Assembly (NCBI GenBank): GCA_902628335.1 | Contig: CACOMO010000002.1 | Coordinates: forward strand, 143,684 to 207,683 | Origin: an uncultured Gammaproteobacteria bacterium | GTDB taxonomy: Bacteria > Pseudomonadota > Gammaproteobacteria > GCA-002705445 > GCA-002716945 | DNA length: 64,000 bases | Direction: 5' to 3' | Shown here: piece by piece, positions 8,261 to 63,926 of the stretch | Position numbering within the stretch: the stretch's first letter is position 1 | How the letters are laid out: each line of letters begins with the position of its first letter | The notes under the pieces: model-generated | What the model saw: the letters and a program-made list of their open reading frames with translations, nothing else | What the model was told of the DNA's origin: nothing | Databases searched by the model: none | Translations under genes and position numbers: made by a program

Positions 8261-8276
8261 AGCAAATTTAAAGTGG

Positions 8277-47955: not shown

Positions 47956-49310
47956 TTATTTTTCACTATAAAATCTAAGAAATTTTTTATCCATCTTATT
48001 TTACTGGTATCTCTTATATGACTATATGTAGCTATAAGATTTTTAACAATTATTCCATCAGACTTTCCATCTACGCCATATCCTCTTTTGACGTTAAAAG
48101 CGAAATCATTTCTAGCAAAGTCTCCCTCCAACCTTGAGTGGTGAAATTCATGACCAGGAATAGATTTTTTATGAGGAAGCCATAGATGTTTTTGTTTAGT
48201 TTCTAAATGCACGTAGCCTCTTCCAACAGGTTGGTCATGCATTGTTGTATCACCATCAATAGCTCCTATCATTTTGTATTTCCTATTTTTGAATTTTATA
48301 CTTTTAGATAAATACATCAACCCACCACACTCAGCATAAGTTGGGCCATAGTTATTTATAAAAGATTTTATCTCTTTTTTTAACGAGGTATTTCTGGATA
48401 ATTTGTCCAGATATAACTCTGGAAATCCACCACCAATTATCAATCCGTCAATACATGGGAGCTTCTTATCCTTGAGTGTGTTTATGTATTTGATCTTTAC
48501 ACCATGACTCAAGAGCTTATCAATATCATCTTGATAATAAAAACCAAATGCTTTATCACTAGCTATGCCTATAGTGATATTTTTAAATTTTTTTAAACGA
48601 TTAGTTGTCGTTGGCATAATTGAAGTATGATTTTTCTCACAAAGATTAGTAAATTTGACAATATCAACTGATGTTCTTATGACTTTTTTTATGGCTTGAA
48701 TTTTCTTATGAGCAAGACTTTCAAGGAAATAAGGTTTTAGACCTAGGTGCTGTTCTTCTATTATCAAATCCTTATTTTTCCAAATCGATCCTAATATCCT
48801 TATGTCTGAATATTTTTGAATAGAAGCTATTAACTTATCCTCGTGTCTACTTCCATTGACTTGATTGAGGATTAGACCATGATATTTAATTTTTGTGTCA
48901 AAAGATGTGTATCCATTTACTAGAGGTGCAATACCTCTCGTCATGCCCTCACAATCTATTACTAGTATGACTTTGAGACCTAATAATTTTGCCAATGCAG
49001 CATTACTGTCACTTCCATTTAATTTTACACCGTCAAAAAGACCCTTGTTAGCCTCAACCATCGATATTTCTGATTTGGCTGTTTTTTGACAAAACAAATC
49101 TCTTACCTCGTTGTTAGTCATGGTGTGAAAGTCAAGATTATAACAAGGGCGATTTGACGCAGCTGATAACCATAAAGGGTCTATATAATCTGGGCCTTTC
49201 TTGAATAAGGAGAGTTGTTTACATTTTTTTGACAAAATAGCTGTCAAGCCAATGGTAACTGTTGTTTTACCTGAAGATTTTTTTGTTGATGCTATTAGAT
49301 AGGAATTCAA
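47952..49310 (-). CDS. dsrN: siroheme amidase-like DsrN (cobyrinic acid a,c-diamide synthase family)
   Basis: CobB/CbiA-type N-terminal AAA domain STKKSSGKT plus a GATase domain. Position after dsrP. Confidence 0.8.
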   Translation of the reverse strand: MNSYLIASTKKSSGKTTVTIGLTAILSKKCKQLSLFKKGPDYIDPLWLSAASNRPCYNLDFHTMTNNEVRDLFCQKTAKSEISMVEANKGLFDGVKLNGSDSNAALAKLLGLKVILVIDCEGMTRGIAPLVNGYTSFDTKIKYHGLILNQVNGSRHEDKLIASIQKYSDIRILGSIWKNKDLIIEEQHLGLKPYFLESLAHKKIQAIKKVIRTSVDIVKFTNLCEKNHTSIMPTTTNRLKKFKNITIGIASDKAFGFYYQDDIDKLLSHGVKIKYINTLKDKKLPCIDGLIIGGGFPELYLDKLSRNTSLKKEIKSFINNYGPTYAECGGLMYLSKSIKFKNRKYKMIGAIDGDTTMHDQPVGRGYVHLETKQKHLWLPHKKSIPGHEFHHSRLEGDFARNDFAFNVKRGYGVDGKSDGIIVKNLIATYSHIRDTSKIRWIKNFLDFIVKNK

Positions 49311-49319
49311 AACTCACCA

Positions 49320-50534
49320 TTAACTATCAGATCCAACAGCTTTCTTTGCCTCTGGAGACTTTATGACTGTAGGTAAAAAATCTAGATTTGCAATACCTAT
49401 TAGCACAATAATAAGAGATAAAGCAACACCACCTAGTCCTAGACCTAACTCCCATATAGTTGGAATATAAGTATGGATGACATTGTCATAAAAACTACTC
49501 TCCAGAATTTCATAATTAGTGAACATTTTAAGTGGGTATGCTTGTCCAGCAATTATGATAACGTACATAGCAAGGAAACTTCCAACAAGTATTAACAAGG
49601 TAGCGCTCATTAAACTGGATTCTGATTTGTTTTCATCTCTGAATAATATATATAAAGGTAATATCAGACCTATGACAACCTGCCCAACCCAAAATGCAAT
49701 AGTATAAACACCACCATTTAAAAGAATAAATTTCTCAAATTCAAGGTGTTTGGATATATATAAATTTGTTACATGATATAAAATAAGAAAGTAAAGATTT
49801 GCAAATAGAAAAAGTAGGGTTAGTTTCCGTAAGTTTTGTAATATCTCTTCAGAAAAAAGTGTCTTTTGAAAATAATTAATTGCTTTCACTATAAGAAAAT
49901 ATACTACTGTCCCATACAGGAGAGACATTATTATAAATAATGGAGCTAATATTGCTGTGCCATAAGCCTCGCGTGAGATGAGGAAACCAAATATTGAACC
50001 TGTTCCTGTCGTTAAAACAATCCTCCAAGTGAAAGCGAAAATTCCAGCTGGTCTAGAAAACTTGTTTACATTTCTATCTAGCATGGTCCAAATATATATT
50101 GCTAAAATCCCTGCAAATCCAGAGTACAGGAAAATATTCCAAGCGAAGATGGATTTAAAATTATATGTCGTCATCGCTACTATTAATCTATCCGGCCTAC
50201 CAAGATCTAGGACTAATATGGCTAGTCCTGATATTAAAAAGGCCATAGCCAGTAAAGCTGACAATGGGGCAAGGGGTTTGTATAACTTTTTATCAAATAC
50301 CGATGATATAGACGCAATGTTTAATACACCAGACGCTATGACTATTAAGAGGACTGCAAAGATATGAGGTAATCCCCAAACAATTTGATTATTCATTCCT
50401 GTAACATAGTGACCCTCTGTCTCCATATAATGTGAGCACAAATAACCAATCAAAATGACAAAACCTAAACCAAAAAACATCATCCAAAAAGTTTTTGATT
50501 CTATCTGAAATTTCTTAAATATTATTTTTTCCAT
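49320..50534 (-). CDS. dsrP: DsrP (NrfD/PsrC-like quinone-interacting membrane subunit)
   Basis: Ten-helix NrfD-like membrane protein, translationally coupled to dsrO. Confidence 0.85.
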   Translation of the reverse strand: MEKIIFKKFQIESKTFWMMFFGLGFVILIGYLCSHYMETEGHYVTGMNNQIVWGLPHIFAVLLIVIASGVLNIASISSVFDKKLYKPLAPLSALLAMAFLISGLAILVLDLGRPDRLIVAMTTYNFKSIFAWNIFLYSGFAGILAIYIWTMLDRNVNKFSRPAGIFAFTWRIVLTTGTGSIFGFLISREAYGTAILAPLFIIMSLLYGTVVYFLIVKAINYFQKTLFSEEILQNLRKLTLLFLFANLYFLILYHVTNLYISKHLEFEKFILLNGGVYTIAFWVGQVVIGLILPLYILFRDENKSESSLMSATLLILVGSFLAMYVIIIAGQAYPLKMFTNYEILESSFYDNVIHTYIPTIWELGLGLGGVALSLIIVLIGIANLDFLPTVIKSPEAKKAVGSDS

Positions 50535-50536
50535 AT

Positions 50537-51277
50537 TTAAATGTTAGAGTAAGTAACTCTTTGCTTCAATGAGAGATCAGCTCGAAGTCGTCTATTTTGC
50601 TTAGTTTTAAGAGCTTGGCTTACTCTGCTGTTAGGATCAGATAAATCACCAAAAGATATAGCTTTGTGACCCTCTTTCATGCATGCTTCCTCACATGCGG
50701 TAGTGGGAATACCATGATCAATTCTATTAACACAAAAATTACAACTTTCCACGCAACCTTTGCCCCTAGGTGCAGTTGTAACTTGTTCAGTTAAATTTTC
50801 GTGAACAAATGATCTAGCTTTAAATGGGCATGCCATCATACAGTAACGACAACCTATACATGTATGCTGATTTACCATAACTATACCATCAACTCTCCGA
50901 AATGAAGCACCAGTTGGGCAAACGTCACAGCATGGTGGATTCTCACAGTGCTGGCATAACATTGGCACAACTTTAACCTTATCTGTTTTGATATCCTTTA
51001 TTGTTAGTTTTCTTATCCATTGTGAGTCTGTCTCAGGTCTATCAAAACCATACAAACCATTCTCTTCTACGCACGCATCAACACATGCTGTACAACCTTT
51101 AGCGCACTTATCAACGTCTATACTCATCGCCCATTTTGTATCTGAGTTAACTTCCTCGTTAAGTGGTTTTGCAGCTTGCGCAGAGGTAATTATGTCAGGA
51201 ATAAAATATACAGTCGACAGTAGAGAAATCGATTTCACTATAAAACCTCTTCGACTAAGTTTAGTGTCAATAGTCAT
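50537..51277 (-). CDS. dsrO: DsrO (periplasmic 4x[4Fe-4S] ferredoxin-like subunit, Tat signal)
   Basis: Twin-arginine motif SRRGFIVKS. Multiple CxxCxxCxxxCP motifs. Confidence 0.85.
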   Translation of the reverse strand: MTIDTKLSRRGFIVKSISLLSTVYFIPDIITSAQAAKPLNEEVNSDTKWAMSIDVDKCAKGCTACVDACVEENGLYGFDRPETDSQWIRKLTIKDIKTDKVKVVPMLCQHCENPPCCDVCPTGASFRRVDGIVMVNQHTCIGCRYCMMACPFKARSFVHENLTEQVTTAPRGKGCVESCNFCVNRIDHGIPTTACEEACMKEGHKAISFGDLSDPNSRVSQALKTKQNRRLRADLSLKQRVTYSNI

Positions 51278-51750
51278 TTTGCACCTTCGACATAACTGAC
51301 TAATTTTTCAATCTCTTTTGATACATGGTCGTGTGAATGATTGTAATTAAGACTAATATGAGCTTCTGGTTTTCTTCCTCTAGGCACGGACGCGTGACAT
51401 GAAAAACAATCTATATTAACAGCTGTTTGAATATGGCATGTTTGACAAAATTGTCCCTCAGAATTTATTGGTATCGGCTCGCCAACTTCATCATATGAGA
51501 CATGACAATCAATACAATTTGCAAAACTGTGATTCTTTGTTCTTAAGCCATTAATTACTGTTTTGTCTCGTTGATGATATAGAAAAACAAAGTGTTCTTT
51601 CTGCATTATCTCAGTAGGTTCCACACACTGTGTTGCATCATCTGCTTTTGATTTGCCTTTGATTGAGTGGTTTATGCCATCATGACTGTATATGTCAGGA
51701 GAGATTAAGAAAATTATCAGTAACAGAAGCCTTATCGCTAATTGGTACAC
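51274..51750 (-). CDS. dsrJ: DsrJ (periplasmic triheme cytochrome c)
   Basis: Three CxxCH motifs, CIDCH, CQTCH and CFSCH, with a signal peptide. Confidence 0.85.
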   Translation of the reverse strand: MYQLAIRLLLLIIFLISPDIYSHDGINHSIKGKSKADDATQCVEPTEIMQKEHFVFLYHQRDKTVINGLRTKNHSFANCIDCHVSYDEVGEPIPINSEGQFCQTCHIQTAVNIDCFSCHASVPRGRKPEAHISLNYNHSHDHVSKEIEKLVSYVEGAK

Positions 51751-51785
51751 TTTCTCCCTCCCAGATTTCTACCAATTGTGGGTAG

Positions 51786-53759
51786 CTATTCTCCAAGACC
51801 CATTTTTATATAACCAGTTGGACACACATCTGCGCAAATGTGACATCCGATGCATTTGTTATAATCGGTATCGACATATCTACCAGTTGTTGATTGATCT
51901 TTTTTTACTCTAAATACAGCGTCTTGAGGACAATATATGACACAGTTATCACATTCGAAACACATACCACAACTCATACATCTGCCTGCTTCTTTAATTG
52001 CTTCTTCCTCAGTTAATCCAATAATTCGATCCTCATAATGATCTATGACGTCATCTCCTGTAGGTACTGCTTCACCACGCTTATATCTTGCTTCATGTTT
52101 ATAGTGACCCAGAAATAACTCTGTCGAAGGGATTACCTCCTGTCCAGATCTATCCTCATAATTATGAACCACAGCATTATTATTATCACTTCCTCTAAGT
52201 TTGTCTGGATCTTCAATTTTAGCCTGATAATCTTCAGGTGAGAGATCTGATTCTCTGAGTTTATCTAATAATTTGAAATGATGGACATCAACTTTAGGTC
52301 TTCTTTTAAAATCATCATTTTCAAAATAACTCTCAATCGTATCTGAAACTATTGAGCCTTGACCTATTGCTGTTGTTAATAAATGTGGTCTAATAATATC
52401 ACCTGCTACAAAATGACCTTCTTTTGTTTTATGTCTGTAGAAGTCGTCAACTTCAAAGAAGCCTTTTTCATTTCCCATTTCCTCATAACCTTCAATGTCA
52501 GGACTTTGCCCGATAGCAGAGATAATCAGGTCAGCCTCAATAACTTTTTCAGTTCCTTCAATAGGTTTTGGTACATTCTCTTCAAAGGTACAATCAGCAA
52601 CAACAAGAGCAATTGCTCTTCCATTCTCATCTTGCTCTACTTTTACAGGAATTACTCCATTTAATATTGATACACCTTCGTGCATCGCATCATTAACTTC
52701 TTGTTCAGCTGCGGTCATTTCCTCTCTCTTGAATAAGGAAGTTAGTGTTACCTCGGCACCCTCTTTGATGGCTTGCTCAGAAACATCTTGAGCAACATAC
52801 CCATGAACAACTGCTTCTGGTTTTTCTTGAGGGTTCATATTAGAGATATGGCCAAGTCTTCTTGCTACTGAGACCACATCAATAGATGTATCACCACCAC
52901 CAACGCAAACTACTTTTTGTGCACCTACTTTTAATCTACCTTGACTGAACGCTTCTAAGAATTCTACACCGTTCAAACAGTTTTCTGCATCACTCCCTTC
53001 AACTGGGAGCGATCTTCCATTCCAGCAGCCAATAGTCCACAGAACAGCATCATGAGATTTTTCAACATCTTCTAAAGGTACGTCTTTGCCAACTCTTGTA
53101 TTAAGTACTACTTCAATATCACCCAAGTCTAAGATACGTTTTATTTCTGCATCCAAGATATCTCTTGGTGTTCTATAATTAGGAATGCCGTAGCGCATCA
53201 TGCCACCAAGTTTTTCTCTCTCTTCAAAAATAGTGGATGCATAACCTTTCTTTCTTAACTGATATGCAGCAGACATGCCAGCTGGTCCACCTCCTATAAT
53301 TGCTACTCTCTGTTTTTTAAGTTCAGGCGCAGGGTCAAATTTAAATCCTTCTTTAAATGCTGTATCTCCGATGAACTGTTCTACTGCATTAATTCCAACA
53401 TAATCATCAACTTCGTTTCTGTTACAGCCACTTTGACATGGAGCGGGGCAAACTCTTCCCATTTGTGATGGAAAAGGGTTTGCAGTTGTTGATCGCCTGA
53501 AAGCATATTCAGACATTGTCATACCCTCTGGTGCTTTTTCTATACCTCTAACGATTTGTAACCAACCTCGTATATCTTCACCAGATGGGCAACTACCTTG
53601 GCAAGGTGGTGTTTTATGAATATATGTAGGACACTTATGGGATTTGTCTTGATTAAAGATATCCTCTGAAAAGTCTGTATACTTATGATCACCATCAGAG
53701 AATCGTCTATAGGTATTCTCCTCTTTCATCAAGTTGACTGTTTTTTCTAGCTTAGACAT
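51786..53759 (-). CDS. dsrL: DsrL (NAD(P)H:acceptor oxidoreductase, GltD-like with C-terminal ferredoxin domain)
   Basis: N-terminal Cys clusters, an FAD/NAD Rossmann motif IIGGGPAGMSAA, and a C-terminal 2x[4Fe-4S] domain CMSCGMCFECDNC...CIGCHICADVCP. Confidence 0.85.
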   Translation of the reverse strand: MSKLEKTVNLMKEENTYRRFSDGDHKYTDFSEDIFNQDKSHKCPTYIHKTPPCQGSCPSGEDIRGWLQIVRGIEKAPEGMTMSEYAFRRSTTANPFPSQMGRVCPAPCQSGCNRNEVDDYVGINAVEQFIGDTAFKEGFKFDPAPELKKQRVAIIGGGPAGMSAAYQLRKKGYASTIFEEREKLGGMMRYGIPNYRTPRDILDAEIKRILDLGDIEVVLNTRVGKDVPLEDVEKSHDAVLWTIGCWNGRSLPVEGSDAENCLNGVEFLEAFSQGRLKVGAQKVVCVGGGDTSIDVVSVARRLGHISNMNPQEKPEAVVHGYVAQDVSEQAIKEGAEVTLTSLFKREEMTAAEQEVNDAMHEGVSILNGVIPVKVEQDENGRAIALVVADCTFEENVPKPIEGTEKVIEADLIISAIGQSPDIEGYEEMGNEKGFFEVDDFYRHKTKEGHFVAGDIIRPHLLTTAIGQGSIVSDTIESYFENDDFKRRPKVDVHHFKLLDKLRESDLSPEDYQAKIEDPDKLRGSDNNNAVVHNYEDRSGQEVIPSTELFLGHYKHEARYKRGEAVPTGDDVIDHYEDRIIGLTEEEAIKEAGRCMSCGMCFECDNCVIYCPQDAVFRVKKDQSTTGRYVDTDYNKCIGCHICADVCPTGYIKMGLGE

Positions 53760-53830
53760 AAATCTCCCACCAAATATAAGTTTATTATTCTAATCTAATA
53801 TTCAATAATTATAGCACATGGATTCAGACC

Positions 53831-55330
53831 CTAAAGCTCTTTTTTGTTCATAATTAGAGCGTTTCCAACAAGCTGATGTAAGCTTATAATCTGGTCGATT
53901 TCAAACCCGTAGTATCCTAGAGCTTTCGAGAACTGTGACTTACAAATAGCACATATAGCAGCCATATGAGTGACACCATAGTCATCGACAACCCTCTTTA
54001 GTGCCTCCATTCTGGGGAGAGCACCTTTCATGCGTAATTCCATAAGATCATCTGTCAAGAGGCCTCCTCCGCCGCCGCAGCAGAAAGTTTTCTCTTTAAT
54101 TGTACTTTCGTCCATATCGTAAAAATGATTAGTAGTTGCCCTAATGATGTCTCGCGGAATTGTAAATTGCCCACCTATCACATCACCCATATTTGATGCT
54201 CTAGCCACATTACAGGAGTCATGATAAGTAACGACCATGTCATCGTTGGCAGACTTATCAAACTGTAAAACATTTTTCTGAATTAAGTCGTATGTTACTT
54301 CGCAAATGTGTTGAGGCACAGGATATTTAGGGTCTAGAAAATCAAAAGGTCCGGCAAGTGTGTTGAGAAAACTATATGCAACACGCCATGCGTGACCGCA
54401 CTCACCAAAGACAATCCTTTTCACATTTAAATCTAGTGCGGCTTCCCTAATCCTCATTGCAAGTTTACGCATGTTTGCATAACTTCCAATGAACATACCA
54501 AAATTAGCAGCTTCACTAGCATGAGAGCTCAAAGTCCAACTTAGGCCTGCTTGATGAAAGACCTTTCCATAACCAATTAAGCCATCTACGTGTGGTTCGG
54601 CAAAAAAATCTGCTGAGGGTGTAACTAGTAAAATATCAGAATCTTTCTGATCAAGTGGGTATTTTACATCAATATCAATCTCATCTTTGACATCCTCTTC
54701 AAGACCCTCGAGCGTATCAGCGAGGGCAGGTTCAGGTAGTCCTAAATTATTACCAATCTTATGAACTTTACCGATAATTTCATTACAATATTTTTGACCA
54801 ACGCCCACGGAATCCATAATTTCTCGTGCTGCCATTGATATTTCTGCAGTATCGATTCCCATAGGACAAAATACCGCACATCTCCTGCACTGTGAACACT
54901 GGTGGTAATAGGAATACCAATCATCTAAAACTTCTTTTGTTAAATCTACTGCTCCTACAAGTTTAGGGAAGTATTTACCAGGTAAAGTGAAGTATCTCCT
55001 ATAAACACTTCGAAGCAAGTTTTGCCTACCTACGGGCATGTTACTTGGATCTTTCGTTCCTAGATAATAATGGCATTTATCTGTGCAAGCACCACATTGA
55101 ATACACGAATCTAGGTAGACTCTTAGTGATCTATATTTTTTTAGCAGATCACCCATTTTGTCGAGGGCTGCATCTTGCCAGTTATCGACAAGTTCTCCCG
55201 GGTAACCAAGGGATGACTGGAATTCCTCTTTTGATTTAAAAGGTGCTAAATGTGCAGTTGCTTTTTTTTCAAGTAAAGGAACATCAGAGTATTCTTTAAG
55301 TTCAGGTTTTTCGAATTCTTTAACTGCCAT
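53831..55330 (-). CDS. dsrK: DsrK (HdrD-like catalytic subunit with CCG domains)
   Basis: Ferredoxin motifs CIQCGACTDKC and CSQCRRCAVFCP, plus CCG domains FCCGGGGG. Confidence 0.9.
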   Translation of the reverse strand: MAVKEFEKPELKEYSDVPLLEKKATAHLAPFKSKEEFQSSLGYPGELVDNWQDAALDKMGDLLKKYRSLRVYLDSCIQCGACTDKCHYYLGTKDPSNMPVGRQNLLRSVYRRYFTLPGKYFPKLVGAVDLTKEVLDDWYSYYHQCSQCRRCAVFCPMGIDTAEISMAAREIMDSVGVGQKYCNEIIGKVHKIGNNLGLPEPALADTLEGLEEDVKDEIDIDVKYPLDQKDSDILLVTPSADFFAEPHVDGLIGYGKVFHQAGLSWTLSSHASEAANFGMFIGSYANMRKLAMRIREAALDLNVKRIVFGECGHAWRVAYSFLNTLAGPFDFLDPKYPVPQHICEVTYDLIQKNVLQFDKSANDDMVVTYHDSCNVARASNMGDVIGGQFTIPRDIIRATTNHFYDMDESTIKEKTFCCGGGGGLLTDDLMELRMKGALPRMEALKRVVDDYGVTHMAAICAICKSQFSKALGYYGFEIDQIISLHQLVGNALIMNKKEL

Positions 55331-55339
55331 TTTATAATC

Positions 55340-56071
55340 CTATGATTCTAGTTTTCTAGCCCAATCTGCAATATGTCTTGAATCCCTTGCGGTATCAGTC
55401 TGATTTCTGGTAGGACTAAAGAATAATCCTGGGGCATGGAGCAATTTACTATAAGGAAAAATAATCATAAGAAGTAATACAAGTCCTAGGTGAAGTAATA
55501 GCATAAAATCGGATGGTAGCTCAGACCAATTAAAATATATCAAACCCAGTATAAACTGCTTCAATGCAAAAATATCTGTTGGGTACCATTTCATCAACAA
55601 TCCAGATAAGGCAATGCCGATAATTAAAAATAGAATTAAATAATCTGAGGGTGCTGAAATATGGCGAACTCTATCTACGAATATCCTTCTCACAAGTAAA
55701 CCAAGCAAGCCGAGCAACATCATATATGCCGCATAGTGACCAGCTGCTTGAACGATCTCCCATGATACCCAAAACCATACTGGATCAGTAGCATATCGGA
55801 GGTGTCTAAAAAATGCTAACAATAAAGCAAAGTGAAACAACCATCCAAACAACCATGTCCACTTAGCTGAATGAAATAGACTTTCAAAAAAAACTACTTC
55901 TCTGAATAGTCTCACTGCAACGCCACGTTTAGTCTTAGGTGCCGGTGGCGTTGGTATTTTTAGAGGAGCTGGAATAGTTGCATACTCATAAATTCTGTAT
56001 GCTATCCCTGCAAACAAAATCAAGGTTGCAAAATAAAACAACGATCCATATATAATTGTCACAAGTGACAT
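55340..56071 (-). CDS. dsrM: DsrM (NarI-like dihaem cytochrome b membrane subunit)
   Basis: Five-helix membrane protein with conserved His pairs. Precedes dsrK. Confidence 0.85.
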   Translation of the reverse strand: MSLVTIIYGSLFYFATLILFAGIAYRIYEYATIPAPLKIPTPPAPKTKRGVAVRLFREVVFFESLFHSAKWTWLFGWLFHFALLLAFFRHLRYATDPVWFWVSWEIVQAAGHYAAYMMLLGLLGLLVRRIFVDRVRHISAPSDYLILFLIIGIALSGLLMKWYPTDIFALKQFILGLIYFNWSELPSDFMLLLHLGLVLLLMIIFPYSKLLHAPGLFFSPTRNQTDTARDSRHIADWARKLES

Positions 56072-56103
56072 GCTCCTCTCCTCTCATAACCTTGCTAAGA
56101 ATA

Positions 56104-56436
56104 TTATACGCAACCAGTAGGCTTTGGTAATCCTGCAAACTTACAAGCTTGCTTACCAGGGCCATATGGGAAAAGTTCATAAAGGTATTTGCTGTTACCT
56201 TTTTCTTTTCCGAGTTTTTTACCGACTGCTTTGGTCAATACCCTAACCGCTGGAGCGATTTGATACTCTTCATAATATTCTCTTAGGAAATTAATAATTT
56301 CCCAGTGATCTTCGCCAAGATCAATGCCATCTTCTTTAGCCATTATCTCCGCGACATCTTTTTCCCAGTCGTTAAGGTTACTTAAGTAACCCTCTTCGTC
56401 TACTTCTAAGCTTTTACCATTTACTTCTATTGGCAT
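56104..56436 (-). CDS. dsrC: DsrC (sulfur-carrier / sulfite reductase substrate protein with CysA and CysB)
   Basis: C-terminal arm QACKFAGLPKPTGCV with two Cys spaced 10 residues apart. TusE/DsrC fold. Confidence 0.9.
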   Translation of the reverse strand: MPIEVNGKSLEVDEEGYLSNLNDWEKDVAEIMAKEDGIDLGEDHWEIINFLREYYEEYQIAPAVRVLTKAVGKKLGKEKGNSKYLYELFPYGPGKQACKFAGLPKPTGCV

Positions 56437-56450
56437 AGTCTACTCCTGAT

Positions 56451-56753
56451 TTATAGCCAGTTTTGAATTCTCTCATTCTCAACGGCAAGTTTAACAAAAT
56501 CTTGATAATCTATTATCTCTATATTATTGATTAGAGAGTTTTTATCAAGCCCTCTGGCCATTAAATCTGGCCCTAAGACGTACATTTTTACAGTATTAAG
56601 CGACTCTTTTACAGTTGCCTCAAACTTAGTGCCCTTTAGTGCACCATAAACACCATCCTCGATCAATAGAACGGAAGAATCTTTACCAGACAGTCTTAAA
56701 CATGTCTCAAGACTGTTTTTTTCAAAAGGTGATTTATTAACAGTGTGTAGCAT
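56451..56753 (-). CDS. dsrH: DsrH (DsrEFH sulfur-relay complex subunit)
   Basis: TusB/DsrH family; the N-terminal segment contains a conserved Cys. Confidence 0.8.
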   Translation of the reverse strand: MLHTVNKSPFEKNSLETCLRLSGKDSSVLLIEDGVYGALKGTKFEATVKESLNTVKMYVLGPDLMARGLDKNSLINNIEIIDYQDFVKLAVENERIQNWL

Positions 56754-57136
56754 TAGAAATTTAGAATTACCTCACTATCAGTAATTAATTGTTTCATTTC
56801 ATCTGATGAAATAATTTTGACGTCAACAGCAAGATCATCTGCAGATATTCCCCTTTCATCAAGTGACTCTTTTTCTACATATAATTTCTCAACATCATAC
56901 ATCTCAAGTGCAGAGAAAGTCTTTGTAAAATTTTTAGTACTAATCTGATCTGTATTCTGATCTTTTTTTAACTGAAAGACTCCGTCATCAAGAAATGCCA
57001 TGCTAACGTCTTGTTCGAAAGCAGCACCAATCAAGACAACTTCAAGAGCCTCGTGAGCATAAATTGTTCCATGAGGAGCACGTCTATTTATGTATAAAAA
57101 TTTTTTTATAACACCACTTTGAGCTTCTTCTTCCAT
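56753..57136 (-). CDS. dsrF: DsrF (DsrEFH subunit)
   Basis: TusC/DsrF family, translationally coupled. Confidence 0.8.
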   Translation of the reverse strand: MEEEAQSGVIKKFLYINRRAPHGTIYAHEALEVVLIGAAFEQDVSMAFLDDGVFQLKKDQNTDQISTKNFTKTFSALEMYDVEKLYVEKESLDERGISADDLAVDVKIISSDEMKQLITDSEVILNF

Positions 57137-57529
57137 CTAGTCACCAAAAGTAATTAATCTATCTGCTTGAATACCGGCCTCTATTAGCTGTCCTAAGCCT
57201 GATATTCTAAAATTATCTGCAATGTTATCTGCATCTTTTTTATTTCTTTTCATTTCGTCAGGATCGACCATACCTCTACGTTGAGCTGCTGCTACGCATA
57301 ACACTAAATCTAAATTATGTTCTTTAGCAAGTTCGGACCACCTGTTAGGGATATGACGATCATCTTGTGGAGGAGTAGCTAGACGTGTGCCGTTGTTTAC
57401 ACCATCATGATAGAAGAATATCCGATAAATCTCATGTCCTTGATCTATTGCGGCTTTTGCAAATAAATAAGCACTATCTGAAGCTTGGTGTGTGTAAGGT
57501 CCCTCGTTTACAAGAATTCCAAATTTCAT
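57137..57529 (-). CDS. dsrE: DsrE (DsrEFH subunit with active-site Cys)
   Basis: TusD/DsrE family; the conserved Cys lies in LVLCVAAAQRRG. Confidence 0.85.
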   Translation of the reverse strand: MKFGILVNEGPYTHQASDSAYLFAKAAIDQGHEIYRIFFYHDGVNNGTRLATPPQDDRHIPNRWSELAKEHNLDLVLCVAAAQRRGMVDPDEMKRNKKDADNIADNFRISGLGQLIEAGIQADRLITFGD

Positions 57530-57540
57530 AATATCTAGTA

Positions 57541-58626
57541 TTAAAATCTAACGTATGCAGATGAGTTGAGGGTTTTTCGACCGCCACGCCAATTATCAAT
57601 ATGGAACTTAGTAAATGGTAGCTCTGTTAATTCGAAGAATCTTGGCCAACCAATTCTCTCAATCCAGTCATTTATTCTTTCCCAATCCTTTGCGTCTTCT
57701 TTGTAAACTTTTAGAATACGTTTAACGATTGCGGTAGCCTCTGGCCATCTTGGAGGATTATTAGGTATACCCGCGGCTACTAGTTTTTGGAATGTAGGTT
57801 TGCCTCTAGCATTAGAATGATTTCCGCCTACCCATATAGCAAGTTTACTGTGTTCAGGGTCATTGATTTGCATTGGAGGACATGGAGGGAAGCAGGCTCC
57901 ACAGCAAATACATTTTTTTTCATCGACTTCTAAAGATGCTTTACCGTTAACCATTGCCGGTCTTATTGCTGCCACAGGACAACGTGCCACAACAGATGGT
58001 CTCTCGCAAACATTTGATACAAGATCATGGTTAATTTTAGGTGGTTTAGTATGTTGTATATTGATTGCAATATCACCTTGTCCACCACAATTAATTTGAC
58101 AACACGATGTAGTCATGTGGACTCTATTTGGCATCTCATTACCTTTAAATTCGTCAATTAATTCATCCATCATTGCTTTTACAACACCAGATGCGTCAGT
58201 TCCAGGGATATCACAGTGTAGCCAACCTTGTGTGTGCGAGATCATAGCAACGCTATTTTTTGTCCCACCAACTATAAACCCGTTCTTTTCTAATTCTTCT
58301 ATTAAAGGTTCTACTTTACTCCCATCTTTAACCATATACTCAATGTTACTTCTAATTGTAAACCTGACGTAACCATCAGCATATTTATCACCAATGTCAC
58401 ATAATGTCCTTAATGTGAAAACGTCAAGTATACGTTGGGTCCCGGCTCTAACTGTCCATATCTCTTCACCACTTTTTGCAACATGTTTAAGAACTCCAGG
58501 TTTTGGGTGCTCATGATACTGCCATTGACCATAGTTCTTACGCATAGTTGGATGCATATATTGAAAACCATCAGGTGCTCCTGTTTCAATCGGAGCTCTC
58601 ATCTCTTTTTTTTGTTCTTCACTCAT
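57541..58626 (-). CDS. dsrB: dissimilatory sulfite reductase beta subunit (reverse-type)
   Basis: Sirohaem/[4Fe-4S] Cys motifs and a ferredoxin insert CxxCxxC. Collinear with DsrB. Confidence 0.95.
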   Translation of the reverse strand: MSEEQKKEMRAPIETGAPDGFQYMHPTMRKNYGQWQYHEHPKPGVLKHVAKSGEEIWTVRAGTQRILDVFTLRTLCDIGDKYADGYVRFTIRSNIEYMVKDGSKVEPLIEELEKNGFIVGGTKNSVAMISHTQGWLHCDIPGTDASGVVKAMMDELIDEFKGNEMPNRVHMTTSCCQINCGGQGDIAINIQHTKPPKINHDLVSNVCERPSVVARCPVAAIRPAMVNGKASLEVDEKKCICCGACFPPCPPMQINDPEHSKLAIWVGGNHSNARGKPTFQKLVAAGIPNNPPRWPEATAIVKRILKVYKEDAKDWERINDWIERIGWPRFFELTELPFTKFHIDNWRGGRKTLNSSAYVRF

Positions 58627-58629
58627 AAT

Positions 58630-59883
58630 TTATGCAGACTCTTTTTTAGCATCAGCTTTTTCGTACCACTTTACTGCTTCGTCATCCCATTCATCTGTCC
58701 TTACATAAGAACTCTCTCTTGGGTTAGCAACCATGTTAGGGTCAACGTCAACTCCGATACCCTCTAAGAAATTGACAAGACCGATTCTTTCAATCATCTC
58801 ACCACATCTTTCATGTTCAAGTGCATTATCTGCCCAAAAATCAATGGACTCTTCGGCAATCTCGACGAGACGTTCCCAGTCTTCATCAGTTTCTAGCTTC
58901 ATAAACGGAACGATTACAGTTCCCATCAAATCACCAATTTTTAGGGTTCTCTTCCCACCTATCAGAATTGTAACACCCTTATCATCCCCAGGATGGAGTG
59001 CTTTTGGCACAACGTTGAGACAGTGCATACATTTCACACAGTTTTGATTATCAATCGCCACAGTGTCATCATCATTCAACGAAATTGCATTTGTAGGGCA
59101 TCTTGTAACGATATTATCAATCACATATTTTCTACCTTTCAATGCTACATATTTTTTAAATTCTTCTTGGTCAATTTGAATGTCATCTCTCCAAGTACCT
59201 ATCACTGACATATCCGCTCTTTCGATTGAGTTCATACAGTCATTTGCACAACCAGATATTTTAAATTTAAATTTGTATGGTAAGGCTGGACGATGCATAT
59301 CATCCATGAAGTTATTTACCAACAAACGCATAGCTTTCTGCTCATTCAAATTAGACATCTCGCAACGACCAGCGCCTACACAAGCCATAGCCGTCCTCAC
59401 ACATGGCCCAGCACCACCCAGATCAAATCCATAATCATTAATTTCATCAAAAAAGTGCTGCGTGTTCTCGGTAGACGAACCTATAAACATAATGTTTCCG
59501 GTTTGCCCATGAAAAGTCACCAGTCCAGATCCGTATTTTTCCCAACTGTCTGCTAATTGACGAAGGATATCAGTTGTATAAAAATTACCTGCAGGTGGTT
59601 GGACTCTTAGGGTATGAAATTCTTTTGATTTAGGGAAAGCATCACCAACTTCAGAAAAGCGAGGTATTATTCCTCCACCATATCCATAGACACTTACTGT
59701 GCCACCTTTCCAATAGCCTTTGCGTGTCTCATAGGAGTGCTCTAATTGACCAAGTAGGTCATTAGTCATCTCATTAATTCTCTCTTCTGGATGATTGTCT
59801 CTTAAGCGCTTTATCCCACTAATAAAACTAGGCCAAGGGCCGTTCTCCAGCTCATCAATCATCGGGGTGTCGTGTTTTTTCAA
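58630..59883 (-). CDS. dsrA: dissimilatory sulfite reductase alpha subunit (reverse-type); TTG start
   Basis: Collinear DsrA homology: GGGIIPRFSE..; Cys motifs CVRTAMACVGAGRCEMS and CANDCMNS. Start codon TTG at 59881-59883, with SD AGGGAGA 6 nt upstream. Confidence 0.95.
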   Translation of the reverse strand: MKKHDTPMIDELENGPWPSFISGIKRLRDNHPEERINEMTNDLLGQLEHSYETRKGYWKGGTVSVYGYGGGIIPRFSEVGDAFPKSKEFHTLRVQPPAGNFYTTDILRQLADSWEKYGSGLVTFHGQTGNIMFIGSSTENTQHFFDEINDYGFDLGGAGPCVRTAMACVGAGRCEMSNLNEQKAMRLLVNNFMDDMHRPALPYKFKFKISGCANDCMNSIERADMSVIGTWRDDIQIDQEEFKKYVALKGRKYVIDNIVTRCPTNAISLNDDDTVAIDNQNCVKCMHCLNVVPKALHPGDDKGVTILIGGKRTLKIGDLMGTVIVPFMKLETDEDWERLVEIAEESIDFWADNALEHERCGEMIERIGLVNFLEGIGVDVDPNMVANPRESSYVRTDEWDDEAVKWYEKADAKKESA

Positions 59884-60048
59884 TCGTTTCTCCCTGTAAA
59901 CCCTTTAAATACTGCTACCCTGCAGATTAGCTATATTGAATCCATCCAATATCTTTATTATATTATCATTATTTTCTAATATAATGCTTGGATAATCAAT
60001 ATAACATTGATATTAATTGTATTACAAGCTAAAAAAAACCATAATTTT

Positions 60049-60897
60049 ATGAATATATTGAATGTAAAAAGTGATGATTATAGGCGTTGGAGAGACCGTA
60101 AATTAGCTTGTTTCACATCGGATATGAGTAAACTGATGGTGGAGATAAAAAATCCCCTAAAATTGACATCATCAGAGATCAAGTTATCAGCAAAGATCAT
60201 AAATCAGAGCAATTTACTATTTTTTGAATTGGGGCATTATAAGGGCGACATCAGATCATCCCTAGTGATACTTGCAAAACAGTTCGGTATGGGGCAATTC
60301 GAAATATTAGAGTCAAGTGAAAAGAGTGGATTGACAAAGATAGAGGTATCCTCTTTATCTAAAGCAAAAAGTGAATATATTCCTTATACAAACAAATCAT
60401 TAAATTGGCATACTGACGGTTATTACAACGAGGTTAACGATCCGATTTTGTCATGGTTACTATTTTGTAAATCTAATTCCAGTAATGGAGGCGACAATAA
60501 ATTTATGGACCATGAGATTGCTTATATTCTATTTAATGACCACTCGGCAGATATCGGAGATTTAATGGATAGTGAGGCATTTACCATACCTGAGAATACT
60601 CAAAATGGTAGGAAGGCTGTGAGCAGTTACGTATTTAGATTGTTAGACAACAAGTTACATATGAAGTTTAGCATGAGAGAGAAAAATATAATCTGGAGAA
60701 ATAAAATTAAATCATCGGTAGAATTACTTAAAACGATTATTAAAGAAAATGAATACTATCAAATAAAGTATAAGTTGAAACCTAACCAAGGCGTTATCTC
60801 TAATAATGTTATTCATATGAGGTCATCATTTACAAATACGTCTAATAAGAATAGGCTGTTATATAGGTTGCGATCTAAAAGAAGAATAGATATCTGA
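60049..60897 (+). CDS. TauD/TfdA-family Fe(II)/2-oxoglutarate dioxygenase
   Basis: Facial-triad motif NWHTDGYYN, matching TauD NWHTDVTF. NGGDNKFMD matches GGDTLW. C-terminal VIHMRSS...R matches RIMHRAT. Divergent from dsrA across a 165-bp AT-rich region. The ORF track start 60007 is possible; ATG 60049 is preferred. Confidence 0.7.
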   Translation: MNILNVKSDDYRRWRDRKLACFTSDMSKLMVEIKNPLKLTSSEIKLSAKIINQSNLLFFELGHYKGDIRSSLVILAKQFGMGQFEILESSEKSGLTKIEVSSLSKAKSEYIPYTNKSLNWHTDGYYNEVNDPILSWLLFCKSNSSNGGDNKFMDHEIAYILFNDHSADIGDLMDSEAFTIPENTQNGRKAVSSYVFRLLDNKLHMKFSMREKNIIWRNKIKSSVELLKTIIKENEYYQIKYKLKPNQGVISNNVIHMRSSFTNTSNKNRLLYRLRSKRRIDI

Positions 60898-61088
60898 TGT
60901 TATATTTAAGTACGCTGTTGATACAAGAGAAAGATGTAGAGAGTTTCGAAGAACTATTAGAGGTAATTAAAATGAGAGCTAAATCTGGAGAGCGTTTCAT
61001 CCGACTTGATCTCAAGCCTCCATACCCTGATACACCTAAAGATTGGGAAGAGAGAGTTGAATCTGCATTTACAGGATACATTGAGTGA
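60897..61088 (+). CDS. small hypothetical protein (63 aa), translationally coupled in the TauD-like operon
   Basis: ATCTGATG and GTGATG overlaps with the genes on either side. No motif recognised. Confidence 0.35.
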   Translation: MLYLSTLLIQEKDVESFEELLEVIKMRAKSGERFIRLDLKPPYPDTPKDWEERVESAFTGYIE

Positions 61089-61765
61089 TGTGGATTGAAG
61101 AAGAAGAAAAACAATCAATCTCAGAGATGTCAAAGATGGTAGATGTGGCGTTTAAGATAAATTGTAAAACTCTGCCATATGATCATGCCTTCTCACTATC
61201 AAATGAAATACTTAAACACCTACCTTGGTTAGAAGACAATAAATTGACAGGCATACAAACACTTCATGGGCCAGAATCAGGCAATGGTTGGACAAGGTCG
61301 GAGAATGAAGAAATTTTTTTATCGAAAAGGACCAGGCTTATCCTAAGGATTCCAAAGTCGGAATACGATAAAGCTTGTGAACTTGAGGGCGAAACACTCA
61401 AGGTGCTTGGAAATGATATTAGAATCGGTAAAGCAAATAAAAAGCCATTTCTCACTGTAAGAGATTTAATATGTAGATTTGTGCTAACAAACGAAGATCT
61501 GGATGAAAGTGAGTTTCTTAAATATGTTGCTGAAGAGTTTAAAAATCATGAAATTCATCTTCGCAAAGCCATATGTGGAAAAACAAAATCATTTACAATA
61601 AACGGTGATCAAAAATTTACAAGAAGCCTTATGATTGCTGATTTATCTAAAGAAAATTCTATCAAGCTTCAGGATGTCGGAGTTGGTATAGGCAGAATTT
61701 TTGGCTGTGGGATTTTCCTGCCTCATAAATCAATTGATGCAGTTGCAAATTTCAAAGAAGATTGA
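61088..61765 (+). CDS. hypothetical protein with C-terminal Cas6/RAMP-like glycine-rich loop (GVGIGRIFGCG)
   Basis: About 225 aa. Near the C-terminus, GhG-xxxxx-GhG appears as GVG IGRIF GCG, the pattern of Cas6 G-rich loops. No CRISPR array or cas genes are in the window, so homology is unproven. Confidence 0.4.
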   Translation: MWIEEEEKQSISEMSKMVDVAFKINCKTLPYDHAFSLSNEILKHLPWLEDNKLTGIQTLHGPESGNGWTRSENEEIFLSKRTRLILRIPKSEYDKACELEGETLKVLGNDIRIGKANKKPFLTVRDLICRFVLTNEDLDESEFLKYVAEEFKNHEIHLRKAICGKTKSFTINGDQKFTRSLMIADLSKENSIKLQDVGVGIGRIFGCGIFLPHKSIDAVANFKED

Positions 61766-61851
61766 GTAATCTCTGTAGACATATTTATCGCAGTATATTA
61801 GAATTTTCCAATATAGTAATTATTGATATAGTATAAAAGTGGAGTGATACT

Positions 61852-62190
61852 ATGAAAGTTGAAGTAGACGGAAAAGAGATCCCAACAACAGATACTGGTT
61901 TTTTGACAAACTTAGAGGACTGGTCTGAAGATGTTGCAAAAGTTATTGCTGAACAAGAGGGCATACAACTGGCTGAGAGGCATTGGGATGTAATAAATTA
62001 TCTTAGAGATGAGTTTATTAACAACAAGGAAAATCAACCAAACACCAGAAACATGGTCAAGGACTTAGGTAAACTCTGGGGAGAGAAAATTGACACTAAA
62101 ACGCTTTTTGATTTATTCCCTGGAAATCCAAGCAAACAAGCCGGAAGAATTGGCGGTTTGCCAGAGAGTAGACGAAAAGGCGGATATTAA
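61852..62190 (+). CDS. DsrC/TusE-family paralogue lacking both C-terminal cysteines
   Basis: Collinear with the window's own DsrC (MKVEVDGKEI..ERHWDVINYLRDEF..LFDLFPGNPSKQAG). The C-terminal arm reads RIGGLPESRRKGGY, with Gly where DsrC has CysB and CysA. Confidence 0.8.
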   Translation: MKVEVDGKEIPTTDTGFLTNLEDWSEDVAKVIAEQEGIQLAERHWDVINYLRDEFINNKENQPNTRNMVKDLGKLWGEKIDTKTLFDLFPGNPSKQAGRIGGLPESRRKGGY

Positions 62191-62519
62191 TGTCAGAAGA
62201 TAAAGTCAGTCAGAATGACACAAAGGCAGAAGATACCAATCAGGATAATAATGAATCTCCTGAAGAAAATAATGAATCTCCAGAAGTAGAGAAAAAACCT
62301 GATAAAAAAGCTCTAGAAAAAGAAAGGAAAGAAATTATTACTAAAATGCTAAGAATTCAGAAAGAATTCATGGAGTTAGAGAGAGAAAAAGGTGTCACAG
62401 AAAAAGATATTCATCATAACCCTCAAGGAATTGTTAAAGAGTACAAAGAAGAGCATGAGAAACTTGCTAATAGACTAGTTGATATCGCACATGCATTAAA
62501 AGGGTCTATAAGAACATAA
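62190..62519 (+). CDS. acidic low-complexity protein with tandem NNESPEE/NNESPEV repeat
   Basis: TAATG overlap with the DsrC-like gene. Asp/Glu/Lys-rich. Contains a 24-nt near-duplicate tandem repeat. Confidence 0.4.
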   Translation: MSEDKVSQNDTKAEDTNQDNNESPEENNESPEVEKKPDKKALEKERKEIITKMLRIQKEFMELEREKGVTEKDIHHNPQGIVKEYKEEHEKLANRLVDIAHALKGSIRT

Positions 62520-62713: not shown

Positions 62714-63274
62714 TTATTTCGTTAAAGAAGTGTAAACTTCTACGAACTTTTTACAAATCTCAACCGCATCAATATCAACAATCTGATCCATTACCCATTT
62801 GTTAGTTTGACTAGAGCCCATAGCATCCTGAATTTTTTTTGCTAAGTGTCTATAAATAGAATAATTGGTCTCTCCTGGGCTGAAATCAAAGTCCGAGTAT
62901 TCAGAAGATCTGAGGTTTAGCGTTTTAATATACCCTGTTCTATAATCCCCAGCTCCAAATAGGTCCTCGCAATTCTCTTGCATCGTTCTTGCTGAATGAC
63001 TCCCTATTTTATTCATTACCTCTATCCTAAAATCCTCGGGGTGGTCATCTCTAAATAACAGTCTGTCAGCTATATGAACTTGAAATGACATAAATTCAAC
63101 AATGACACTCACTCTTTGATGATCAGATGTGTACTCAAAATCCTCTCCGTGCAAGTTTTTAGCTTTGTCTAAAGATAACCTCCACCCAATATACGACATT
63201 GCACTTGCAAAATCCTCACTTGTTTTTTCTCGTTTAACGGTTTTGGACCATTTACTCTTAATTCTTATAACCAT
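62714..63274 (-). CDS. hypothetical protein (186 aa)
   Basis: Long ORF with no recognised motifs. Convergent with the preceding operon. Confidence 0.4.
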   Translation of the reverse strand: MVIRIKSKWSKTVKREKTSEDFASAMSYIGWRLSLDKAKNLHGEDFEYTSDHQRVSVIVEFMSFQVHIADRLLFRDDHPEDFRIEVMNKIGSHSARTMQENCEDLFGAGDYRTGYIKTLNLRSSEYSDFDFSPGETNYSIYRHLAKKIQDAMGSSQTNKWVMDQIVDIDAVEICKKFVEVYTSLTK

Positions 63275-63329: not shown

Positions 63330-63926
63330 ATGGATATTAAAATAGATAAACGTCTGATTGAAGTAAGTTCGGGAAGCTTTATTTTCGAATTTACTCATTC
63401 CCTTGATAGCACTATTTGTACTGATATTATCAAGCGTTTTGAAGACTCTACAGAAGATCATTATCGAGGTCGTGTCGGGCAAAATTTTATTGAGAACACA
63501 GATGTTAAAAAATCGACAGATATGGTCATTAGCGGAAAAGACGCGTGGAAAGATGTTGATGAGTTATTATTTAGAAGTCTGTCGAAAGCACTCTCCAGTG
63601 TTAAAAAAGAATATGATTTTTTTAATGGGCCTTTTAAAGATATAGGTTATGCTGTTCAACGAACAGAGCCTGGAGAATATTTTAATTGGCACATTGACAG
63701 CGGTAGTCACCAATTTAGTGATAGGCAACTGGTTGCAATTTGGTATCTTAATGACGTAGAGGGGCCAGGTGGTGAGACAGAGTTTATTCATCAAAATGTT
63801 AAGGTTAAACCTGAGAAAGGAAAACTGATTCTCTTTCCACCATTTTGGACTCATGAGCATCGTGGTGTTAAACTTCAAAAAGGAGTTAAGTACATAGCAA
63901 CAACATGGATAGTATTTAAAACATGA
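63330..63926 (+). CDS. 2OG-Fe(II) oxygenase, prolyl-4-hydroxylase-like
   Basis: HxD...H triad with WHIDSG and WTHEHRG. A double-stranded beta-helix of about 200 aa. Confidence 0.65.
   Translation: MDIKIDKRLIEVSSGSFIFEFTHSLDSTICTDIIKRFEDSTEDHYRGRVGQNFIENTDVKKSTDMVISGKDAWKDVDELLFRSLSKALSSVKKEYDFFNGPFKDIGYAVQRTEPGEYFNWHIDSGSHQFSDRQLVAIWYLNDVEGPGGETEFIHQNVKVKPEKGKLILFPPFWTHEHRGVKLQKGVKYIATTWIVFKT

Follow-up and report, generated by a model that had tools for sequence, protein, structure and literature searches.

A cysteine-less DsrC paralogue with an RKGGY tail, encoded beside a Cas6-like gene and the dsr operon of an uncultured gammaproteobacterium

Background

DsrC is the sulfur-carrying substrate protein of the Dsr enzymes DsrAB, DsrEFH and DsrMK. 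We analysed a stretch of 64,000 nucleotides (from here: the window) from an uncultured Gammaproteobacteria bacterium (contig CACOMO010000002.1, assembly GCA_902628335.1), which carries a complete oxidative-type dsr operon and, divergently transcribed from it, a gene at 61852..62190 for a second DsrC-like protein lacking cysteine (from here: DsrCl). Here we report that the C-terminal arm of DsrCl, the site of the catalytic cysteines in DsrC, ends in a different and nearly invariant peptide, and that the gene belongs to a conserved module next to dsrA that also contains a homologue of Cas6.

61852..62190, + strand: DsrCl, cysteine-less DsrC-family paralogue of the regulatory sulfur-related protein (RspA) type; 112 amino acids; PF04358, TIGR03342; DsrC fold

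PMC8477390 places DsrC in a 'DsrC/TusE/RspA' family, and PMC9371685 describes DsrC-like proteins without the penultimate cysteine CysA as putative 'regulatory sulfur-related proteins', RspA; both cite Venceslau et al. 2014 for the definition of this class. In Methylovirgula thiovorans HY1, according to PMC9371685, there are two additional DsrC-like proteins, MHY1_00075 being an example, and MHY1_00078, named 'TauD/DsrQ', precedes DsrAB (MHY1_00079-80). The gene numbering alone of this alphaproteobacterium (00075, 00078, 00079-80) fits the arrangement found in the window. Hence, the RspA class and the name DsrQ are established, at least one genome paper has mentioned the arrangement, and the idea of a regulator is not new. 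In the limited literature that was searched, no description was found of the RKGGY subfamily defined below, of its constant operonic tie to an orphan Cas6 homologue or of the promoter element that it shares with dsrA.

Results

DsrCl has the DsrC fold and no thiol

The open reading frame of DsrCl begins with ATG, and a GGAG sequence (61841-61844) lies 7 nt ahead of the start. An earlier note on this DNA, made from the letters alone, had called the product a clear homologue of the window's own DsrC (56104..56436), and BLASTP agrees (44% identity over 105 residues, E 3e-32). The protein matches PF04358 with 112.6 bits against a cut-off of 24.9 (E 1.6e-32), the match ending at position 102 of 107 of the profile, and TIGR03342 with 97.1 bits against a cut-off of 53.5. 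The AlphaFold2 model (predicted local distance difference test score, pLDDT, of 89; disorder confined to residues 109-112) exhibits the N-terminal beta-hairpin, the helical bundle and the flexible C-terminal arm of the DsrC fold. Its top Foldseek match is DsrC of Allochromatium vinosum (1yx3, template modelling score, TM, of 0.84), and the entries 1yx3, 1sau and 2v4j_C, which include the DsrC chains of DsrAB crystal structures, score between 0.81 and 0.84. The same search returned a weak likeness to the winged-helix regulators PerR, Fur and LexA (probability 0.3-0.6, E ~1).

DsrC and DsrCl have in common an identity of 41-44%, the fold, an acidic body, a mobile arm of net charge +2, the N-terminal hairpin, a HW[ED]vINyLR helix, the LFP..P.KQ motif and the GLP hinge. 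The globular body of DsrCl carries a net charge of about -6 and has an isoelectric point (pI) of 5.0. What sets DsrCl apart is the loss of both catalytic cysteines, as the earlier note had read from the alignment. At the position of CysB, which in bona fide DsrC lies ten residues before CysA, KQAC has become KQAG, and at the penultimate position of CysA, TGCV has become KGGY. As there is no cysteine anywhere in DsrCl, nor in 79 of 80 orthologues, neither a persulfide nor a trisulfide can be formed, which upholds the corresponding statement of the note. The DsrC signature AGLPKPTGC[VA] is missing as well.

Orthologues were detected in at least 539 species in a scan of species-representative genomes with one genome per species; 80 loci were fetched out of the at least 539 stretches with a relative, and this is the scope of the counts given here. 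The carriers include abundant ocean plankton lineages, several symbionts of animals and protists, and one phage contig. Identity to the DsrCl copy of the window ranges from 66 to 97% with a median of 71% (80 species). For comparison, the median identities across the loci are 80% for DsrC, 78% for DsrA, 39% for the Cas6-like and 34% for the TauD-like protein. Comparison with the two closest relatives gave ratios of nonsynonymous to synonymous substitution rates (dN/dS) of 0.022 and 0.008; against more distant ones synonymous sites are saturated, and the proportion of nonsynonymous differences (pN) is 0.06-0.13. In a neighbour-joining tree the DsrCl family is monophyletic and separate from DsrC, to which its mean identity is 41%. 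DsrCl is a thiol-free protein of the DsrC/TusE fold with an expressed-looking, strongly constrained gene.

The C-terminal arm ends in a new conserved peptide

The arm of DsrCl ends in GLPESRRKGGY and extends two residues further beyond the GLP hinge than that of DsrC. The motif AGLPKPTG(C)(A/V), by which DiSCo recognises DsrC (PMC8477390), is absent and the tail reads GGLPESRRKGGY. Of 80 species, 76 carry exactly ESRRKGGY, and the remaining four have ESMRKGGY. By searching 1.8 billion cluster representatives, followed by a further search, we found a second subgroup (Thiohalobacter/Thiogranum type), likewise without cysteine, with the tail GL[PS]QSTRKGGY. The family signature at the free C-terminus is S-x-R-K-G-G-Y, nearly invariant, and the tail is the most conserved portion of the protein. 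Two divergent tail variants were uninformative: P0248 (...RRDGY) stands in an unrelated context and P0265 is apparently chimeric.

Judged from its sequence, the catalytic tip of DsrCl is swapped for a new motif and not merely lost. That the new motif is nearly invariant argues for a specific new ligand over a mere loss of function, and the invariance of the arm across species sharing only 66% identity overall indicates that this ligand is itself highly conserved.

A stand-alone copy with the intact tail GLPESRRKGGY occurs at 7974..8315 of a phage-like contig (L081, IMGVR_UViG_3300032087_002997), together with genes for a tail protein, a Mom-like DNA modification protein, nucleases and a 2-oxoglutarate (2OG) oxygenase. 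The contig looks truly viral. The lone copy with its intact tail suggests that DsrCl acts on host machinery. With this contig as the sole match among 2.9 million viral contigs, a widespread phage auxiliary gene was ruled out.

The cluster representatives also contain proteins with 2-5 tandem DsrC-like domains (P0241 with 541 amino acids and five matched stretches, P0245, P0250, P0253 and P0255).

DsrCl is the last gene of a conserved module beside dsrA

The genes around DsrCl in the window are as follows.

47605..59883, - strand: complete oxidative-type dsr operon dsrABEFHCMKLJOPNR, with the genuine two-cysteine dsrC at 56104..56436
60049..60897, + strand: TauD/TfdA-family Fe(II)/2-oxoglutarate oxygenase, 'TauD/DsrQ' by position; PF02668, E 8e-9
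60897..61088, + strand: acidic protein of 63 amino acids, family unassigned; in 62 of 75 loci, median identity 50%
61085..61765, + strand: Cas6/Cmx6-family (repeat-associated mysterious protein, RAMP) protein; PF09559, TIGR02807, PADLOC Cas6
62190..62519, + strand: protein of 109 amino acids with a low-complexity acidic N-terminus and, in its C-terminal half, a conserved helical core of ~60 amino acids
62519..62713, + strand: small protein of the Alvin_2107 family; NF049856, 93.5 bits against a cut-off of 60
62714..63274, - strand: conserved protein of 186 amino acids, family unassigned; at most 10 kb away in 43 of 52 loci
63330..63926, + strand: prolyl-hydroxylase-like (P4H-like) 2OG-Fe(II) oxygenase; PF13640, E 8.5e-14; at most 10 kb away in 43 of 52 loci

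DsrCl is the fourth and last gene of a conserved accessory module that runs divergently from dsrAB, the first three genes being those for the TauD-like, the 63-amino-acid and the Cas6-like protein. Immediately ahead of DsrCl, 74 of 77 loci have the Cas6-like gene. The TauD-like gene was found in 69 of 72 loci, and a divergent dsrA upstream in 64 of the 67 that could be evaluated. The distance from the start of dsrA to DsrCl is 1,969 bp in the window, in line with the ~2 kb given before. The four-gene order is kept in the divergent member L082 and in the complete genome of the cultured Thiohalobacter sp. IOR34 (L085). The 63-amino-acid gene is translationally coupled to both of its neighbours. 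The TauD-like frame opens at a TTG (60007), the ATG at 60049 being the likely start; the protein possesses invariant WHTDGYY (HxD) and NN..H.R motifs, and its PF02668 match and its position directly beside dsrA mark it as a putative DsrQ. The HxD...H residues of the P4H-like oxygenase are invariant too.

In the clade of the window, two more genes follow DsrCl, encoding the acidic 109-amino-acid protein and the Alvin_2107-family protein. The earlier note had placed DsrCl at the head of a translationally coupled operon with two acidic small proteins. The coupling is there, with TAATG overlaps at 62188-62192 (DsrCl and the 109-amino-acid frame) and 62517-62521 (the latter and the Alvin_2107-family frame), but DsrCl can head a unit in the window's clade only: in other clades the spacer between the Cas6-like gene and DsrCl is 8-37 nt long and holds only a ribosome-binding site, and DsrCl is therefore co-transcribed with the Cas6-like gene there. 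Both small reading frames exist as described, but the second belongs to a named family, the 'Alvin_2107 family globule sulfur oxidation protein' (NF049856), which in other clades is encoded a few kb away on the opposite strand. A homologue of the first, reduced to the core and 67 amino acids long, comes after DsrCl in locus L020 and in Thiohalobacter (L085). The acidic low-complexity part is not found in the 67-amino-acid homologues of other clades; within the corresponding part of the 109-amino-acid frame there is a 21-bp tandem duplication (AATAATGAATCTCCAGAAGAA, 1.9 copies) at 62247..62286.

Even where the locus is rearranged, the 60-amino-acid helical core, the Alvin_2107-like, 186-amino-acid and P4H-like proteins and often a third DsrC paralogue travel with it. 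This third class has kept CysB and lost CysA, with tails ending in ...AGMRQPKKLWLDM or ...AGLHVPAGAVDKGFGSVA. It was seen at L008 (13417, + strand), at L020 (14013..14351, - strand) and at about 15 other loci, and usually adjoins the P4H-like 2OG oxygenase; in L020 it is accompanied by a 156-amino-acid reading frame that resembles a GNAT acetyltransferase by eye. In the genome of the window it would fall just past the window end. L020 and L085 also encode a conserved DUF6866 protein of 349-355 amino acids, a possible DsrS, near the P4H-like oxygenase.

Altogether two to three distinct Fe(II)/2-oxoglutarate oxygenases surround the dsr operon. They are a TauD-like and a prolyl-hydroxylase-like enzyme and, in other genomes, one of the PKHD type (window, 60049..60897 and 63330..63926, both + strand; L020, 10791..11459, - strand; L085, 11209..11883), all with intact metal-binding residues. 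O2-dependent enzymes are concentrated in this sulfur-oxidation locus. The dsr operon itself terminates with dsrR, and dsrS is not part of it.

The Cas6-like gene stands outside a CRISPR context

Among known families, the Cas6/Cmx6 endoribonucleases, which process CRISPR RNAs (CRISPR, clustered regularly interspaced short palindromic repeats), are closest to the protein encoded upstream of DsrCl. It matches PF09559 (6e-53), TIGR02807 with 112.9 bits against a cut-off of 98.85, the Cas6 profile of PADLOC (2e-58) and the type I-B Cas6 structure 8fcj_B in the PDB (1e-7), and it contains an invariant DH pair and the glycine-rich loop shared with this family. Unlike those enzymes, it keeps its place among dsr genes throughout dozens of species: no CRISPR array, no Rfam match and no cas neighbours were found in the 64-kb window, which rules out a CRISPR context there, and array-like repeats occurred in just 2 of 81 loci. 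The spacer between the Cas6-like gene and DsrCl was inspected for an RNA hairpin that could be a Cas6 substrate, and there was no common structure across clades. With dozens of sulfur-oxidising species carrying it next to dsrA, the protein appears to be a Cas6 homologue that was exapted for use outside CRISPR.

In the clade of the window DsrCl shares a cis-element with dsrA

Two intergenic features were recorded.

61776..61815, + strand: promoter-like element TAGACA-17-TAGAAT (function predicted), overlapping the palindrome TATATTAGAA-TT-TTCCAATATA upstream of DsrCl
59884..60048, no strand: divergent intergenic region of dsrA and the TauD-like gene, with a conserved block; element TATATTAGAAAAT at 59971-59983 on the dsrA strand

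In the window's clade, the spacer before DsrCl is 78-89 nt long and contains a conserved sigma-70-like promoter, T(A/G)GAC(A/T)-17-TAGAAT. The promoter-like element is kept in 15 of 16 members of the clade despite saturated synonymous sites. The 13-mer TATATTAGAAWWT has just two perfect copies in 64 kb, each oriented with transcription: one is located 88-100 nt ahead of dsrA on the dsrA strand, the other 46-58 nt ahead of DsrCl on the DsrCl strand. Its core ATATTAG[AT]A is found in this arrangement in 16/16 clade members on the dsrA side and in 15/16 on the DsrCl side, with 2-5 copies in total per 20-kb locus including these two. At DsrCl the element forms half of a 22-bp palindrome (61794..61815, + strand). 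A looser inverted repeat of the same kind lies ahead of an unrelated desaturase gene.

The sharing of a cis-element with the dsr operon supports co-regulation in this clade and would also fit autoregulation. The element may serve both genes as a promoter, bind another regulator or be the operator of DsrCl itself.

The intergenic region of dsrA also holds a conserved block ...TTATCATT(A/G)(T/A)TTT(C/A)CTAATAT... at 59940..59975, which reads AATAATGATAAT on the dsrA strand. By eye, and in AT-rich DNA, AATAATGATAAT resembles the tandem GATAAT hexamers of a Fur box, and might place dsr or the Fe(II) oxygenase gene under the influence of iron status.

Part of the module in Allochromatium vinosum

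A trio of genes annotated as Cas6-related, hypothetical and hypothetical (Alvin_1248-1250) adjoins dsrA in A. vinosum, with Alvin_1248 next to dsrA and with the same Cas6-related annotation as the gene of the window, while Alvin_1247 is unrelated (PMC11267869 Table S2). Three genes, Alvin_0028, Alvin_0732 and Alvin_1508, are candidates for the DsrCl orthologue, with membership in the subfamily unconfirmed; Alvin_1508 tracks the expression of dsr.

The genes of RuBisCO, SgpB, AprBA and Dsr are induced on reduced sulfur. In the column 'elemental sulfur (Weissgerber 2013)' of PMC11267869 Table S2, the values are 12.5, 6.3 and 17.7 (p<0.01) for the trio and 0.24 for dsrA, along with 0.009 for RuBisCO, 0.05 for SgpB, 0.12 for AprB, ~0.1 for AprBA and 0.1-0.3 for the dsr genes. 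As RuBisCO, SgpB and AprB are below 1, we infer that the column gives the ratio malate/sulfur. Read in this way, the trio would be lower and dsr higher on sulfur; the anti-correlation itself is in the table, and its direction follows from our reading of the column. The statement in PMC11267869 that the dsr genes are down on elemental sulfur may rest on this apparently inverted column. In the pyrite RNA sequencing of that study, the trio was unchanged while dsrAB dropped more than 20-fold (PMC11267869).

Discussion

DsrCl as a candidate adaptor of the Dsr system

With moderate confidence, we propose that DsrCl serves the oxidative Dsr system without a catalytic activity, as an adaptor or as a regulatory subunit. 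Its body, similar to that of DsrC, would together with the GLP hinge still present a mobile arm, the tip of which would have been re-specified from a sulfur-carrying cysteine to the basic peptide RKGGY. This tip would insert into, or become modified by, a conserved partner, with the Cas6-like protein, the Fe/2OG oxygenases or a Dsr enzyme as candidates. As the outcome, Dsr activity or expression would be modulated and sulfur would not be transferred. In the window's clade, the promoter/operator element shared with dsrA would make DsrCl part of the dsr regulon. Gene linkage points first of all to the Cas6-like protein and the oxygenases as candidate ligands.

Several observations weigh against this interpretation. 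The Cas6-like protein and the oxygenases evolve much faster than DsrCl. The tip with its three consecutive basic residues, RRK, would fit poorly to the anion-binding, positively charged channel of sulfite reductase, which weakens DsrAB as a target. The A. vinosum trio stands beside dsrA without an adjacent DsrC-like gene, and the module can thus exist without DsrCl in cis. The trio also responds to elemental sulfur in the opposite sense to dsr (12.5, 6.3 and 17.7 against 0.24; PMC11267869), and from its unchanged level on pyrite during the fall of dsrAB it follows that the module is not simply co-expressed with dsr. Finally, 'adaptor' denotes a category and no particular mechanism.

As a DsrC-like protein without CysA, DsrCl falls under the definition of RspA, and it shares with that class the DsrC fold, the location beside a dsr cluster and a presumed regulatory role. 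RspA is a broad grouping that rests on the absence of a cysteine, whereas DsrCl is a sharply defined subfamily in which both cysteines are gone, the full-length arm is extended by two residues and the tip S-x-RKGGY is invariant. Other cysteine-poor paralogues in the same genomes differ from it by a retained CysB and quite different tails.

Alternative roles

The earlier note had suggested a dedicated regulator or a decoy for the dsr system, which is a plausible idea for a DsrC-like protein encoded at this place. A decoy for DsrEFH was judged unlikely, since the published interaction of DsrEFH with DsrC strictly depends on Cys111 of DsrC (PMC3397948). As a dedicated transcription factor, DsrCl would use the helix-turn-helix (HTH)-like motif of the DsrC fold to bind operators in front of dsrA and its own gene, and would thereby control dsr. 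A regulatory role of DsrC has been discussed in the literature, as cited in PMC7787665, and the term RspA itself, in PMC9371685, contains the word 'regulatory'. The two lone perfect copies of TATATTAGAAWWT ahead of dsrA and DsrCl, with their conserved cores, fit this view, as do the weak structural likeness to PerR, Fur and LexA and the 22-bp palindrome at DsrCl, which is expected for an autoregulated dimeric regulator. However, the element overlaps the sigma-70-like -10 region and may as well be a common promoter or another regulator's site, it was seen in the window's own clade only, and a similar AT-rich inverted repeat precedes the unrelated desaturase gene. Moreover, the globular body is acidic (net charge about -6, pI 5.0), the disordered tail, the most conserved part, is not explained by DNA binding, and many clades co-transcribe DsrCl with an oxygenase and the Cas6-like protein. 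The protein DsrD provides a caution against taking HTH-like Dsr proteins as DNA binders. It is a small winged-helix Dsr protein, formerly presumed to bind DNA, and reportedly now described as an allosteric activator of (reductive) DsrAB (PMC8794893); as such it also offers a precedent for the adaptor reading of DsrCl. DsrCl resembles DsrD as a small helical protein of a Dsr cluster with an HTH-like fold and without a redox group; the two fold families are unrelated, and as non-catalytic modulators they are linked by conceptual analogy only. We regard a transcription factor as unlikely. Given its acidic body, its invariant tail and its partners in the operon, DsrCl is more likely to be an accessory protein that binds protein or RNA than a simple DNA binder.

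An RNA-directed role would have the Cas6 homologue bind or cleave an RNA, such as the dsr mRNA or a tRNA, and DsrCl contact the RNA or ribonucleoprotein via RKGGY. A parallel would be TusE, which cooperates with MnmA and tRNA. The Cas6-like gene and DsrCl are immediate neighbours in 74/77 species with spacers down to 8 nt, the invariant Asp-His pair and the glycine-rich loop are typical of RNA-binding proteins of the Cas6 type, the score exceeds the curated Cas6/Cmx6 cut-off, CRISPR arrays are lacking in the window and array-like repeats rare among the loci (2/81), and the DsrCl tail is basic and rich in glycine. Yet neither a conserved hairpin nor an Rfam family was found in the locus, and the spacers are without a common structure across clades. 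A median identity of 39% for the Cas6-like protein against 71% for DsrCl is not expected for an obligate pair, the phage contig carries DsrCl alone, and A. vinosum has its Cas6-related gene without an adjacent DsrC-like gene. The single-sequence AlphaFold2 model of the Cas6-like protein (pLDDT 44.6) was unusable. On balance, an RNA-directed role appears rather improbable.

A more far-reaching and quite doubtful view is that the whole module is an unrecognised control device of sulfur oxidation, assembled from exapted parts: a CRISPR-independent Cas6, a sulfur-inert DsrC fold and Fe(II)/2-oxoglutarate oxygenases. In one version, the RKGGY arm would become hydroxylated in an O2-dependent manner, as a switch for its binding to a Dsr enzyme or the dsr mRNA. 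In a more radical one, the terminal tyrosine would be removed and the resulting Gly-Gly end activated as a thiocarboxylate, which would create a new sulfur carrier on the DsrC scaffold.

A genuine TusE-type relay for tRNA 2-thiouridine synthesis is highly improbable, although public names for the identical or a near-identical protein are 'Sulfurtransferase TusE', 'tRNA 2-thiouridine synthesizing protein E' and 'sulfur relay protein', and there is partial similarity to the TusE equivalog NF008562 (E 8e-24). TusE (YccK of Escherichia coli) belongs to the same superfamily and takes part in the tRNA 2-thiouridine sulfur relay, but it requires a conserved C-terminal cysteine that accepts the persulfide from TusBCD, and DsrCl has none. 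Its score against NF008562 is 83.8 bits where the cut-off is 191, and the gene context is dsr and not tusBCD or mnmA. The earlier note had said that its reading would fall if DsrCl were a TusE with a differently positioned cysteine; the absence of cysteine and the TusE score below the cut-off rule this out. The relay is effectively refuted by the sequence, and the public TusE-type annotation is functionally wrong. That DsrCl is a functionless, decaying dsrC duplicate, as the loss of both catalytic cysteines might suggest, has a negligible probability and is refuted by conservation: dN/dS is 0.008-0.022, the new tail is near-invariant in at least 539 species, and the reading frame, the Shine-Dalgarno sequence and the translational coupling are intact.

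Conclusions

Oxidation by the Dsr system is among the major routes of the sulfur cycle in the sea and in sediments, and DsrCl is conserved nearly as strongly as DsrC itself. When it is labelled as TusE or 'sulfur relay protein', metagenomic surveys and compilations of phage auxiliary genes arrive at inflated numbers of dsrC and tusE. The module of the TauD-like protein, the small protein, the orphan Cas6 homologue and DsrCl is among the few conserved dsr-linked sets without an assigned role. Thiohalobacter sp. IOR34 is a carrier in culture, and A. vinosum, a genetic model, has part of the module beside its dsrA. Identifying what the RKGGY arm binds would reveal how the oxidative Dsr system is controlled or maintained.

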